From an uncultured Nitrospirales bacterium (GTDB lineage: Bacteria; Nitrospirota; Thermodesulfovibrionia; UBA6902; BMS3Bbin08): DNA of 60,197 nt. The notes under the pieces are model-generated. The model saw nothing but the letters and a program-made list of their open reading frames with translations, had not been told where the DNA came from and searched no databases. The stretch is from positions 1 through 60,197 of the forward strand of contig CAZNPC010000004.1 in the NCBI GenBank assembly GCA_964574765.1, read 5' to 3'. The position numbers and the translations under genes were made by a program. Shown piece by piece: positions 11,172-29,236 of the stretch (its first letter is position 1; the number at the start of each line of letters is the position of its first letter).

Positions 11172-12035
11172 ATGAAAGTATTCTTTTCCAGTAAATGCCT
11201 CGAATACTCACAGCCCGGACACCCTGAGTCTCCGGAAAGGGTTAGCTCAACATACAGCTTTCTCAGGAAAAAAGGTTTTGAGTTCATTGAACCATCTGCA
11301 TGCAATGAAGAGGATATCCTGTTTGCTCACACACCTGAACTTCTTGAGTCTGTAAAGGAAGAACGTTTTTTTGATATGGACACTCCAGCGCTGCCCGGAA
11401 TATTTGATCACGCAATGCTTGCCGCCGGAAGCGCGGTCAACGCGGCGTCTATATGCCTTGAAGGAGAAATAGCATTTTCTTTAATGCGCCCGCCCGGCCA
11501 TCACGCAACCAGAAACAGCCTTGGAGGTTTTTGCTACTTCAATAATATCGCCGTTGCCGCGTTAAAGACGGGCCGGAAGGCCGGCAAAACAGCCATAATT
11601 GATTTTGACTGCCATCACGGAAACGGCACAGAGGACATATTCCTTGGCAAAGAGGGGTTTCTGTATCTTTCACTGCACCAGAGCCCTTTATATCCGGGAA
11701 CAGGGCTTGGAAGCCGTGAAAACTGCATAAATTATCCCCTTGCTTCAGGTACGTCTGCTGATGAGTATATCTCTGTCTTTGAGAAGGCGCTTGAGCAGGT
11801 TGTACAATTCAAACCCGACCTTGTCGCTGTCTCCGCGGGATTTGATTCATACATACTTGACCCAATAACAAACCTTTCACTTGAAAAAGACACATACAGA
11901 AAGATCGGAGCAATGCTTTCCGGACTTAATAAACCTCTGTTCACTGTGCTTGAAGGCGGATACAGTAGAGACCTGCCGGAGTGCATTTACCAATTCCTGA
12001 CAGGACTTGAGGGACAGCAGACGAAAGACGATTGA
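11172..12035 (+). CDS. Histone deacetylase-family amidohydrolase
   Basis: HPESPER, RPPGHHA, GGFCYFNN, DFDCHHGNGT, SAGFD and LEGGY motifs. Confidence 0.95.
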   Translation: MKVFFSSKCLEYSQPGHPESPERVSSTYSFLRKKGFEFIEPSACNEEDILFAHTPELLESVKEERFFDMDTPALPGIFDHAMLAAGSAVNAASICLEGEIAFSLMRPPGHHATRNSLGGFCYFNNIAVAALKTGRKAGKTAIIDFDCHHGNGTEDIFLGKEGFLYLSLHQSPLYPGTGLGSRENCINYPLASGTSADEYISVFEKALEQVVQFKPDLVAVSAGFDSYILDPITNLSLEKDTYRKIGAMLSGLNKPLFTVLEGGYSRDLPECIYQFLTGLEGQQTKDD

Positions 12036-12118
12036 AGATGGACGAGAGACGAAACAAATCAGCAACAAGGGATGACGGGCGGATGACGATGGAAGAAAGA
12101 AGAAGGACGAAGGAAGAT
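12017..12118. repeat. Heptamer array downstream of the four-helix-bundle gene
   Basis: The reverse complement reads TCGTCTC TCGTCCA TCTTCAA TCGTCTT TCGTCTG, consensus TCGTCYN. Confidence 0.75.
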
Positions 12119-12332
12119 AATCATTTAATATTGCAAAAACTGTCAGCCTTTTTTTCCATCGTAAATAACTTAGCGAATATATGCTCGTATTTTTCATCCA
12201 GTTTCTCAAATATCTTTTTATCAATATATTCACAAGCCAAAGCAAATTCTAACCAGGTTTGTGTCTCTGCGGCTTCTTGTGCTGCATCTGATAATTTATT
12301 AATAAATACAGCCTTATATCTTCGTTTACGCC

Positions 12333-12600
12333 CCTCCGGGTCAGAGATCCAAAAAATTGTGTAATTTTTCTTTAGAAAGTTTCAGAGAACGTTCAACCCA
12401 TCTAGCTTCTGACACCGAGGTATACTTTTTGTAAGCAATTATACGCCAAGGGATGCCCGATTTAGTTGACCTTACACGTCCAGCATTGTGTTCTTTGATT
12501 CTTTTCTCGAAATTTTTGGTATGGCCGATGTATCGTCGACCAACACGATCACTGTATAGAACATAGACAAACACGTCCTTTGCTCCTCTGGGTCAGAGAC
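12333..12600 (-). mobile_element. 268-bp GIY-YIG mini-element with terminal direct-repeat hairpins
   Basis: Minus strand begins GTCTCTGACCCAGAGG and ends ATCTCTGACCCGGAGG; it contains only an RBS and a GIY-YIG ORF and sits inside a Trp codon. Confidence 0.85.
12341..12574 (-). CDS. Small GIY-YIG nuclease (77 aa)
   Basis: FVYVL...RYIGHT...RIKEHN...STK...PW...EARWVERSLK; GTG start after AGGAG/AAGGA. Confidence 0.9.
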   Translation of the reverse strand: MFVYVLYSDRVGRRYIGHTKNFEKRIKEHNAGRVRSTKSGIPWRIIAYKKYTSVSEARWVERSLKLSKEKLHNFLDL

Positions 12601-12764
12601 AGCCTTCTGATAAATTTGTACAAACAGATCTTGAAGATTTGCGTACTTGGTCAGTTAAAGAATACCTTTCTTCCTTGGGAAATGTCTTTGAAATTTCAAA
12701 AATTTCCATTGCCGTTTTGAATGCTAACTTATAAACCTCTAATTCTCTTACGCTGCTGATCTTT

Positions 12765-12955
12765 TTCGTTTTCCGTCCTTCGTCACTCATCTCTTCTCCA
12801 CATCTATCTTTATTTGCAGTATTAGCGGTTTTTTAGTCCCTCGTCTATCATAATATGCAGTGTTTAACAGAAGTTGCGTCCATCATCCATCGTCTATCTT
12901 TGTTTGTAGTATTAATGGCCGTTTCGTCCCTCTTCTATCGTCTCTCCTCCATCAT
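12765..12955. repeat. Heptamer array and ~49-bp imperfect direct repeat upstream of the four-helix-bundle gene
   Basis: TCGTCCC TCTTCTA TCGTCTC TCCTCCA, inverted relative to 12017-12118. 12801-12849 resembles 12891-12939. Confidence 0.75.
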
Positions 12956-12960
12956 GTCGT

Positions 12961-14409
12961 TCACTTCTTCCAGAAACGCGGTACAAACAGAATAACAACC
13001 GTATAGATCTCGAGCCTGCCCATCAGCATACAGAAGATAAGCACCCATTTACCGGCAGTCGGAATTGATGAATAATTATCCGCAGGCCCGGCCTGCCCAA
13101 GCGCGGGACCTACGTTTGACATGGCTGATATAACCGTACTTGCCGACGTTATTATATCCATACCCAACGCGCTCATTAAAAGTGTTGCTACCACGGAAAT
13201 GAGAATGAACAGAAACAAAAACCCCCAGATACCGCCGAGAGTCTCTTTAAGCACTACTTTTCCGCCAAGCCTGAGCGCTGTAAGCGCGTGCGGATGGATC
13301 AGCTGATAAAGCTCCCTGTACGCCTGTTTGAACATAAGCAGGACCCTGACCTGTTTCATACCGCCTCCGGTTGAGCCTATCATACCCCCGAAAAACATAA
13401 GGCCGATCAACAGTACCTGGATAAAAACCGGCCACAGCTCATAATCAGCAGTCGCATAACCTGTTGTAGTCATTATAGATACAACCTGAAACGAAGCATA
13501 CCTTAAGGAGTCCGGGACCGAATACCCGCCCGACCTGATCAGAGCAAGGGTAACAACAGCTATTGAGACAAATATCACCATAAGGTAGAACTTGAACTCC
13601 GTACTATTGGTAAATTTAGAGAATTTACCGCGCAGAGCATAAAAATGAAGAGCAAAATTGATTCCGGCGAAGAACATAAAGACAGTTATTATTATTTCGA
13701 TGTAAGAGTTGTTGAAATGAGCTATGCTTGCCGTCTTTGTTGAAAAACCGCCCGTAGCCATTGTCGTAAGTGCATGACATACAGCGTCAAAGACCTCCAT
13801 GCCGCATATCCACAGAAGGACCGCCAGAACTACAGTGAGTCCGGCATAAATATACCAGAGAGACTTTGCAGTATCAAGGATTCTCGGCCTTAACTTCTCA
13901 ACACCGATATCCGGCACTTCCGCCTTGAATAACTGCATACCTCCGACTCCTAACATAGGAAGAATGGCAATAGAAAATACTATTATTCCCATTCCGCCTA
14001 TCCACTGAGTAAGACTTCTCCAGAGCAGAATGCCCTCAGGCAGGCTTTCGAGATCACTCAGAACCGACGCACCAGTTGTCGTAAACCCTGCCATGGCCTC
14101 AAAATACGCGTTGGTAAACGATAAAGAAGCACCTGTCATCAGATAAGGCAATGCGCCGAAAAGAGAGATTGCAAGCCAGCTCGCGGTTACAACAGCAAAG
14201 CCGTCTCTATGTTTCAGCTCTACCTCTTTCTGACTCTTTGTGAAAAAAAAGAGCAGTATGCCTGAAAACAGGGTGACAAAAAAAGACATGCCCAGTGCGG
14301 CAATATCCCCGCTTTTATAGATAATTGAAGCTATGATCGGCAGCAGCATGAAGGCAGAGGAAAAGATAAGGACCACGCCGACAAGATTAAACACAAGAAG
14401 AATGTTCAT
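12961..14409 (-). CDS. trkH: Trk potassium uptake permease TrkH
   Basis: FEAMAGFTTTGAS, QWIGGMGII, TGGFS, GSTGGG and GRLEI motifs. Confidence 0.96.
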   Translation of the reverse strand: MNILLVFNLVGVVLIFSSAFMLLPIIASIIYKSGDIAALGMSFFVTLFSGILLFFFTKSQKEVELKHRDGFAVVTASWLAISLFGALPYLMTGASLSFTNAYFEAMAGFTTTGASVLSDLESLPEGILLWRSLTQWIGGMGIIVFSIAILPMLGVGGMQLFKAEVPDIGVEKLRPRILDTAKSLWYIYAGLTVVLAVLLWICGMEVFDAVCHALTTMATGGFSTKTASIAHFNNSYIEIIITVFMFFAGINFALHFYALRGKFSKFTNSTEFKFYLMVIFVSIAVVTLALIRSGGYSVPDSLRYASFQVVSIMTTTGYATADYELWPVFIQVLLIGLMFFGGMIGSTGGGMKQVRVLLMFKQAYRELYQLIHPHALTALRLGGKVVLKETLGGIWGFLFLFILISVVATLLMSALGMDIITSASTVISAMSNVGPALGQAGPADNYSSIPTAGKWVLIFCMLMGRLEIYTVVILFVPRFWKK

Positions 14410-28453: not shown

Positions 28454-29236
28454 ATGGCTAGGCCTCTAAGAATTGAATATAACGGAGCAATCTATCACAT
28501 TACTTCGCGTGGAAATGCAAAAAACCCCATATATAAATACAATTTTGATAGGCGGAATTTTCTGGATATTCTAAACAAGGTGAACAAGCGATATAATTGG
28601 CTCTGTCATGCATACTGTCTGATGAATAACCACTACCACCTTATTATAGAAACCTCGGATGGAAATCTGTCAAAAGGAATGAAACAGCTAAATGGTGTTT
28701 ACACGCAGTGGTTTAATGCTGTACACAAAAAGGTGGGACATTTATTCCAGGGCAGATACAAGGCAATTTTAATAGAGAGAGAAAATCACTTACTGGAAGC
28801 CTGTAGATATGTTGCATTAAACCCGGTAAGAGCAAAAGCAGTAGATCATCCTGAAAAATGGAAATGGAATAGTTATAACTCAACATCAGGCAAAAATAAA
28901 CTTCATCCATGTTTGACAGCAGACTGGACACTGAATCAATTCGGGAAAAGGAAAAAAGAAGCAATAAGCAAATACAAAGAGTTTGTTCAGGCAGGAATTG
29001 GAGGGGATAGATTATATAATAAAGTAACCGGTCAGAGCATACTGGGTGATGACGGTTTTATTGATGAAATGAGCAGATATATAAGGGAACATGAAAAAAT
29101 AAAAGAAATAACAAAAGAACAAAGATATATAAACAGGCCGGGGCTTAGAGAAATCTTTTCTGAAGAGGTGTTAGCAGATAAACCTGAAAGGAACAGGAAA
29201 ATATTACATGCTGTTGAAAAGTTTGGCTATAGTTAG
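28454..29236 (+). mobile_element. REP-associated tyrosine transposase (RAYT/IS200-like Y1 HUH), possibly C-terminally truncated
   Basis: MARPLRIEYNGAIYHITSRGN, YCLMNNHYHL (HUH), GHLFQGRYK and RYVALNPVRA motifs; start at ATG 28454. Confidence 0.88.

Follow-up and report, generated by a model that had tools for sequence, protein, structure and literature searches.

Here we describe a small insert in a 60,197-nt stretch of DNA from an uncultured Nitrospirales bacterium (hereafter the window), which splits a four-helix-bundle (4HB) gene within a single tryptophan codon and carries, between two short repeats, the gene for a 77-aa GIY-YIG nuclease. The insertion is precise, falls at TG/G (within sequence motifs a slash marks the insertion junction), adds one G and breaks the reading frame of the host gene. 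Comparison with related loci supports the view, already expressed in the original prediction made from this DNA, that the insert is a minimal selfish mobile element with clear boundaries: sites empty of the element and a site with a solo repeat exist, the same codon is occupied in 24/24 loci, and the edges of the unit are sharp. As to the way it moves, a precise transposition-like insertion driven by the element's own GIY-YIG nuclease has, in our judgement, an even chance of being the correct account.

A nuclease gene within a split tryptophan codon

All coordinates refer to the window, and both the 4HB gene and the insert are read on its minus strand, where the gene runs ...GAA GGC T/G[insert]G/G CGT AAA. 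The N half of the gene (PF05635/TIGR02436; 63 codons, 12602..12790) matches Pfam profile positions 1-49 (E 2.2e-15) and TIGR02436 positions 1-45, and is followed by the T at 12601, base 1 of the split Trp codon. The C half (12121..12332) comprises the GG of that codon at 12331-12332, 69 codons at 12124-12330 and a stop at 12121-12123; it covers PF05635 profile positions 51-104 of 106 (E 2.6e-11), position 50 being the split Trp itself. Excision of 268 nt (12333-12600) rejoins the two halves through this one codon and restores the frame, with a joined length of 63 + 1 + 69 = 133 aa, so that the intact 133-aa open reading frame (ORF) expected by the original prediction is indeed obtained. The host gene, which gives a full-length profile match once the insert is removed, belongs to the PF05635/TIGR02436 four-helix-bundle family (23S rRNA intervening sequence (IVS) protein, Avd-like), and an intact relative in another genome (L076) matches phrog_3206, 'Avd protein of DGR', with E 2.3e-7. 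Within the C half there is no start codon before 12240, the first in-frame start in the ORF list, so a host gene carrying the insert should be dead.

The whole insert (268 nt, 12333..12600) equals a 267-nt element plus one duplicated G and can equivalently be placed at 12332-12599, the G at 12600 representing a 1-nt boundary ambiguity or duplication. The element opens with a 15-nt terminal repeat, TCTCTGACCCAGAGG (12585..12599), whose GAGG together with the next two bases (GAGGAG) forms a Shine-Dalgarno-like site for the nuclease gene. The latter is a stand-alone GIY-YIG ORF of UPF0213 type (12341..12574) with a GTG start, and its TGA stop (12341-12343) is held by the second 15-nt terminal repeat, TCTCTGACCCGGAGG (12333..12347), which closes the element and is complementary to the 5' repeat. 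Both the reported content of the insert, a ribosome-binding site and a 77-aa GIY-YIG ORF, and the position of the nuclease stop inside the distal repeat are confirmed by these coordinates. Only ~37 nt of the insert are non-coding. Two exact matches to the 15-nt repeat occur in the window, where 0.12 would be expected even with 2 mismatches allowed, and no exact copies beyond these two exist in the whole 2.52-Mb assembly.

The source genome, a metagenome bin, is fragmented into 282 contigs and has 20 gaps of 100 N, which speaks for an assembly artefact or a chimeric join of unrelated reads, the explanation that the original prediction had itself named as fatal to its claim. Against it, the 12332/12333 junction is bridged with zero differences by a contig of run X3 (record 9), and the 12599/12600 junction is bridged with one difference by a contig of run X8 (record 24), which comes from another study. 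The join is therefore not an artefact of assembly, and 23 further loci in public assemblies have the same architecture. An assembly chimera is ruled out by the bridging contigs, and we give an artefact of any kind practically no credence.

The nuclease matches the GIY-YIG profile PF01541 at 50 bits (cut-off 22.6; E 3.8e-13) over profile positions 3-73 of 78. Y4, S8, Y15, G17, R25 and H29 do not vary across 49 sequences, of which at least 90% conserve N30 and E61; the 77-aa protein has every member of the set Tyr, Tyr, Arg, His and Glu, which, from work on I-TevI and UvrC, we take to be catalytic. Its AlphaFold2 model shows a GIY-YIG fold, in which, as in solved members, helices flank a three-stranded sheet, with a mean predicted local distance difference test (pLDDT) score of 96.6. 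The top Foldseek matches are 1zg2, the I-TevI catalytic domain (1ln0, 1mk0) and the UvrC GIY-YIG domain (1yd6), all with weak E values (4.5e-3 to 0.55), and the nearest solved sequences are the UPF0213 proteins 1ZG2 BH0048 (E 5.9e-5) and 1YWL EF2693 (E 0.053). The protein amounts to a bare catalytic domain without a DNA-binding domain. Pairwise ratios of non-synonymous to synonymous divergence (dN/dS) of ~0.09-0.27, where dS exceeds 0.1, indicate that the ORF is under purifying selection, and the conserved catalytic residues, the predicted fold and the low dN/dS together predict an active nuclease. A comparison with defence families in PADLOC gave only weak partial matches (E at least 0.001), and one with phage families in PHROGs gave zero matches.

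In 16/24 loci of the family described below, the truncated host ORF ends in a TAATG that overlaps the nuclease ATG, a stop/start overlap from which it follows that the nuclease is probably translated off the host transcript. In the window the truncated host ORF ends 18 nt upstream of the nuclease start, behind GAGGAG.

Target codon, site states and paired ends

Nuclease-query scans of public genomes and metagenomes yielded a family of 24 loci, namely the window, L031 and L121-L142, the nucleases of the 23 further loci being 68-77% identical to that of the window. The element lies at TG/G of the same conserved Trp codon of 4HB genes in 24/24 loci, the copies looking independent, within the motif E-[G/A/S]-W-[R/A]-K-R-R-Y in one branch of the PF05635 4HB genes, and its hosts represent at least three diverged 4HB groups (NLAEGW/RKRRYKAVF, NLAEAW/RKRRYEASF and QIAEAW/AKRRYKKHF). 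Insert length ranges from 266 to 269 nt. The extra G begins the 3' flank in 22/24 loci, the other two having lost that flank. A word-index protein search added 47 more clusters of the subfamily, 62-78% identical and nearly all 77 aa long, whose source names, where given, are only 'putative endonuclease'. The search for homologous genes and the alignment of their flanks, both proposed with the original prediction, thus yielded what it anticipated, repeats around the homologues and alleles without the insert.

Among the 60 nearest genomes we found no close copy of the nuclease, the best match being 46% identical. A composite of 4HB gene and element was observed between efflux-pump genes in a planctomycete bin (L031/L122, a contig of the metagenome-assembled genome of Candidatus Scalindua sediminis), with a nuclease 74% identical to that of the window and a host N half that is ~76% identical. 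Set against the figure of at most 46% in the nearest relatives, L031/L122 suggests that the element has been transferred between lineages.

Sites in three states were found. In a genome of the same order (L076) the 4HB gene is uninterrupted, 77% identical in both halves, and reads ...GAAGGATGGAGGAAG... (GAA GGA TGG AGG AAG) across the site. The direct joint from 12331 to 12600, skipping exactly 268 nt, is present in two contigs of run X3 and two of run X4, and a 743-nt contig of X4 (record 16) holds a complete uninterrupted 4HB gene, ~87% identical. L076 and the X3 and X4 contigs are thus the uninterrupted alleles that the original prediction advised looking for. Since the joined-form contigs stem from DNA runs and have 85-92% likeness to the window, they represent other alleles and not spliced RNA. 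The 15-nt repeat is missing from empty sites; it is accordingly not host sequence, as had been claimed, and target-site duplication is ruled out as its source. The third state occurs in a genome of the same family (L077), where a solo repeat and one G occupy the site (TG/TCTCCGACCCGGAGG/GG), a 16-nt insertion that shifts the frame. This solo repeat consists of the 5' arm of the 5' repeat fused to the 3' arm of the 3' repeat. In two relatives of the host gene, an 11-nt deletion lies directly 5' of the insertion site (L078, G014:C27) and a truncation 9 nt 3' of it (L084, G005:C292); both may be scars left by the repair of a cleaved site.

The genome from which the window derives holds a second copy. 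At the same codon of a paralogous 4HB gene, which lies upstream of a gpsA-like gene on contig C131, the scaffold is interrupted by a gap of 100 N (C131:2086-2185). On either side of this gap C131 is 100% identical to a public contig of 1016 nt (L131), which shows that the gap stands in for exactly one 266-nt element, with a nuclease 73% identical to that of the window. The edges of the gap coincide with the longest flanks common to the filled and the empty allele, and the gap may reflect a mixture of presence and absence in the sample.

The terminal repeat itself did not behave as a dispersed genomic repeat. A search for it in this genome and its relatives, which the original prediction had recommended, proved unrewarding: only the two exact copies occur in the genome, and relatives are near control level. 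In 400 other genomes of the phylum sample the 15-mer has 14 exact matches, compared with 5 for the reversed control, and nearly all of them sit in unrelated ORFs coding SDPE; with 1 mismatch, its frequency across the order is about equal to the control. One distant genome of the same phylum (L113, G382:C18:980-1020) contains two tandem TCTCCGACCCGGAGG copies with AG between them, in non-coding sequence beside a purine-rich stretch.

Indications of movement come from four pairs of loci (L123/L124, L124/L125, L128/L137 and L126/L129), in which nuclease dS is 0.02-0.16 and host dS is saturated or 2.3. The elements of each pair are 95-98% identical and both of their 150-nt flanks 69-77% identical, the first differences being met 3 nt beyond the 5' repeat and 4-5 nt beyond the 3' repeat; the elements are thus younger than their hosts. 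By distance, nucleases and hosts also give incongruent patterns, L128 being nearest to L137 by its nuclease and to L127 and L130 by its host. These comparisons point to a discrete element that is inserted precisely and passes from one diverged gene to another, unlike homology-driven homing with co-conversion of flanks, which was not seen in 4/4 pairs of near-identical elements.

Classical free-standing homing, by which the GIY-YIG enzyme would cut empty 4HB alleles and the filled copy would template their repair, the ends serving to aid expression or to block re-cleavage, has nevertheless several features of the data on its side. In 24/24 loci the site is the same position of a conserved coding motif, the element is polymorphic for presence and absence, and the nuclease, whose family includes homing enzymes, has the I-TevI catalytic domain as one of its best fold matches. 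SegB of phage T4 is presented as a free-standing GIY-YIG homing enzyme in PMC2330249. T4 seg genes such as SegB, and the intron-borne I-TevI, have the nuclease superfamily and fold in common with the present element and are likewise selfish, with a fixed site in conserved sequence and both filled and empty alleles. The element differs from them in its lack of a DNA-binding domain, its paired 15-nt ends, its sharp borders and the absence of co-conversion, as well as in its target, a bacterial chromosomal protein-coding gene, and its total size of 267 bp. Those enzymes exceed 200 aa in length, compared with the 77 aa found here. Flanks of 69-77% identity, moreover, offer poor homology for repair, and homing does not need ends that stay invariant while the ORF between them diverges to saturation. 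We consider homing unlikely.

The two ends are conserved in a manner that relates them to each other. The 5' repeat equals the consensus TCTCCGACCCAGAGG in 22/24 loci and the 3' repeat equals TCTCTGACCCGGAGG in 22/24, around ORFs with a median nuclease dS of 0.68. Consensus 5' and 3' repeats differ at two positions (C..A versus T..G), as a result of which pairing between the repeats is perfect and each single hairpin is weakened. In the inter-repeat duplex (5 bp, 3x3 loop, 5 bp) the outer arms, left in the 5' repeat and right in the 3' repeat, pair perfectly, as do the two inner arms; it reaches -15.8 kcal/mol as RNA and -10.1 as DNA, whereas the consensus single hairpins (5'/3') reach only -1.0/-4.1 kcal/mol as RNA and -0.1/-1.2 as DNA. 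In the window, a T for C in the 5' repeat creates a perfect local hairpin and turns one inter-repeat pair into G-T/G-U. As DNA, this 5' copy folds at -4.2 kcal/mol, a value attained by 36/200 shuffles, and the window's 3' copy does not form a hairpin. The description of the ends as hairpin direct repeats holds, then, insofar as they are direct and palindromic by their letters; as hairpins they are marginal, and the pairing between them is much stronger. The accompanying claim that terminal inverted repeats are lacking has, in effect, to be given up, the palindromic repeats making the two ends complementary.

Complementarity between the ends is the conserved property of the family, and the ends would also serve as inverted repeats. 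The two repeats have the appearance of hybrids between two perfect palindromes, and the L077 solo site is one of these. Each 5-nt arm of a repeat has the form CNNNG, which we take to be the cleavage motif of the I-TevI nuclease domain and mention as a lead only.

Possible routes of movement and the fate of the host gene

The unit is a site-specific mobile DNA element of ~267 bp, with the 77-aa nuclease as its sole gene and the paired 15-nt repeats as its ends. If its own nuclease drives insertion, this enzyme, probably translated off the host transcript, would recognise and cut a structure or site set by the paired ends, by the empty target or by both. Host repair or ligation would then finish an insertion that is transposition-like and not a homology-driven copying. 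Loss would proceed by recombination between the two repeats, deleting the ORF and leaving a single 15-nt palindrome, or by decay of the gene.

Several considerations weigh against this account. The part of the element's own nuclease as the moving enzyme is something that we infer, and we know of no 77-aa catalytic domain that confers site specificity without a DNA-binding domain. Since hydrolytic nucleases do not join DNA unaided, the insertion would have to be completed by host repair or ligation. Six ORFs of the genome, including one in the window, also resemble Y1 (HUH) transposases with scores above the Pfam cut-off and might mobilise the element in trans. Three further points concern the host gene. 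Both of its halves are open in 21/24 loci, including four in which the nuclease is frameshifted; host dN/dS is 0.05-0.10 in pairs whose nuclease dS (0.41-0.65) is near host dS (0.74-1.3); and nuclease and host protein divergence are correlated (r = 0.64, 105 pairs). We read the open halves, the low host dN/dS and the correlation as signs of frequent recent re-insertion among related hosts, but the same three points also fit a gene that is functional while interrupted, as it would be under removal of the insert at the RNA level.

Such RNA-level removal, a protein-assisted, intron-like process in which the paired ends would align the exon borders and an encoded or host enzyme would excise the insert before the exons are rejoined, implies a GGCTGGCGTAAA-type junction in the 4HB message. 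In addition to the open host halves, it would account for the intact halves at the four loci with a broken nuclease gene and for the low host dN/dS in pairs of comparable nuclease divergence. Removal from repeat to repeat together with one G restores the frame whatever the internal length (266-269 nt), and the RNA pairing of the ends, with the energy given above, is kept in the window variant through G-U. Opposed to it are the ~37 nt of non-coding sequence, the absence of any Rfam match at E <= 1 in 11900-13100 except a chance snoRNA outside the insert, and a fold of the insert no better than that of shuffles (z = 0.77). There are, besides, DNA-level states (the solo repeat, the deletions and the lost C half), the C half lacks a start codon, and the joined forms are DNA alleles of 85-92% likeness. 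Known GIY-YIG enzymes, finally, cut DNA. We judge RNA-level removal to be improbable.

Other loci indicate that the host gene decays after insertion. Its C half is lost in L031 and L122 and its N half is shifted in L140, and in L026, which carries an element of the terminal-inverted-repeat type introduced below, the C half is frameshifted.

Two kinds of intervening sequence were tried and rejected. In occupying a conserved host codon and in having filled and empty alleles, the insert resembles group I introns and inteins with homing endonucleases; unlike them, it has no ribozyme and is not in frame, the host frame meeting stops right after the junction. An intein is excluded by these stops, reached after 7 nt of insert in the window and after 22-25 nt at 19/23 other loci, and a group I intron by the lack of room for a ribozyme and of any Rfam match.

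Mobilisation in trans would make the insert a non-autonomous hairpin-ended element, IS200/IS605-derived or of the repetitive extragenic palindrome (REP) type, that is moved by a Y1/HUH enzyme, with the GIY-YIG protein as a passenger or retention nuclease. Ends that repeat a palindrome in direct orientation, the lack of a real target duplication and precise insertion beside a fixed short target are what such a mechanism would produce. The six Y1_Tnp (PF01797) ORFs, 226-360 aa long and all above cut-off, lie in the window at 28487-28816 (plus strand) and on contigs C49, C47, C39, C65 and C19, and are possible trans-acting enzymes for palindromic repeats. Members of the IS200/IS605 family have palindromic ends, insert beside a short fixed target without real duplication and are very small. 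The directly repeated palindromic ends, the precise insertion at a short fixed target and the very small size of the present element resemble those of IS200/IS605 elements, palindrome-associated transposable elements (PATEs) and REP/RAYT systems.

The element departs from IS200/IS605 in having no Y1/HUH transposase within it and in having ends that pair together instead of forming strong single hairpins: the consensus repeats are poor hairpins, and those of the window are no better than shuffles. It departs from IS200/IS605 and REP alike in its single target codon and its undispersed repeat, which is found nowhere else in the genome, unlike the repeats of REP or PATE families. Moreover, each copy among the 24 loci, which come from many metagenomes and were all retrieved through the nuclease, has the same ends, around an ORF that is under purifying selection. 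Distant GIY-YIG subfamilies with different end repeats show the same layout (C188, C5, L021, L026 and L143), which suggests that protein and ends belong together and have co-evolved. Movement in trans by a Y1/HUH enzyme accordingly has little probability in our estimation. With regard to transposons with terminal inverted repeats and miniature inverted-repeat transposable elements, the relevant features are ends complementary in two 5-bp blocks, a single G duplicated in 22/24 loci and no known transposase within the element.

The host gene has a frame of its own. Downstream of it lies a purine-rich (GACGA/GAAGA) arm (12020..12114), complementary to pyrimidine-rich arms that, together with direct repeats spaced by 41-90 nt (D1-D3), occupy 12754..12953 upstream of the gene. 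Inverted repeats (I1-I7) of 21-39 nt and 76-86% complementarity frame the 4HB cassette, and suggest that the host gene is itself a cassette bounded by long inverted repeats, an arrangement that resembles the stem of rRNA intervening sequences. Similar purine- and pyrimidine-rich arms surround the 4HB genes of C131, C188, L076 and L077.

Related GIY-YIG genes in other settings

The UPF0213/YhbQ-like stand-alone GIY-YIG proteins (among them BH0048 and EF2693, the two solved structures named above) are the closest to the nuclease in sequence and fold and consist of the domain only, at ~80-100 aa. The gene described here differs from theirs in belonging to a discrete mobile unit whose ends and target are defined; an abstract-level search of the open literature found no role in mobile units for UPF0213/YhbQ-like proteins.

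More distant homologues (at most 57% identical), in the same genome and in relatives, have the order of repeat, ORF and second repeat holding the stop codon. A second type has terminal inverted repeats of 12-14 nt, the 3' copy of which encodes the last residues, ...LTG, with the stop directly after them. Elements of this type split other 4HB genes, 2-4 codons upstream of the site used in the window, at G000:C188:1850-2480 and in L026 (G009:C43), with the ends CCCTGTTAAATA...TATTTAACAGGG and ACCCCATGAAATA...TATTTCATGGGGT. Another lies between aspartate carbamoyltransferase-like and dihydroorotase-like genes (G000:C5:15690-16070), with an apparent TGAG duplication. The end of the C5 element supplies the GTG start of the downstream gene. 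Its nuclease ORF is itself enlarged in frame by an insertion of ~85 nt that is bounded by the same inverted repeat and looks like a miniature derivative.

Most of the remaining distant homologues adjoin tRNA genes; such proximity was recorded for the loci L002-L030, L033-L068 and L143-L200 and, in the genome of the window itself, for C89:1-300 and C52:300-800. A tRNA gene lies within 120 nt, always on the same strand, at 19/29 loci in relatives; on the same strand and within the same distance it is found at 27/44 loci in species-representative genomes of several phyla and at 38/80 metagenome loci; of these 80, 22 are of the 4HB type. The tRNA-adjacent nuclease ORF often ends inside the 5' part or the D-loop of the tRNA, and on its other side stands a partial tRNA copy in which conserved palindromes (TCCCGA-N-TCGGGA, GTCG-NNN-CGAC, CCTGCCTGCCGGCAGGCAGG or CCCGCC-N-GGCGGG) take the place of loops or arms. 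L006 and L013 hold tandem units.

Two further arrangements were observed. At G000:C171:300-900, a ~95-aa GIY-YIG gene of another subfamily has three direct copies of a composite palindromic unit, GTCATTCCCGCG..CGGGAATCCAG..GGATACCCGAC..GGGTATGAC, around it. On the Patescibacteria contigs of L143/L032, a ~19-nt repeat, ATTAGGTGTGGGGGTTGAC, stands on both sides of the nearest outgroup nuclease (57% identical); its upstream copy lies within a larger palindrome, and its downstream copy contains the nuclease stop.

The tRNA-adjacent homologues, with their partial tRNA copies and palindromes, suggest a large unrecognised class of selfish elements, which would also affect the annotation of tRNA genes. 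In an abstract-level search of the open literature we found no description of a GIY-YIG element in 4HB genes or at bacterial tRNA genes. It is conceivable, and we advance it as a tentative proposal that we doubt somewhat more than we believe, that the nuclease and two mutually pairing ends constitute a complete autonomous element, that such elements form a new class of prokaryotic transposable element, and that the same logic explains the tRNA-adjacent UPF0213-type genes. If this is true, a GIY-YIG nuclease would do the work otherwise done by DDE, HUH, serine, tyrosine or Cas1 enzymes, and the element, at ~267 bp, would be smaller than any autonomous element known to us. The order of repeat, mini-nuclease ORF and stop-bearing second repeat would then explain the presence of UPF0213-type genes at tRNAs in several phyla.

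Should the nuclease alone drive insertion, it would represent a very compact site-specific DNA-insertion system, for which the end-to-end pairing of the repeats offers a concrete structural hypothesis of nuclease recognition. Stand-alone GIY-YIG proteins of ~80 aa are very common, and one subfamily of them can now be assigned a defined behaviour: it belongs to a discrete mobile unit of which both the ends and the target are exact, and whose site can be observed empty, filled or with a solo repeat. This opens the function of such proteins to direct tests with the 77-aa protein and a few oligonucleotides.

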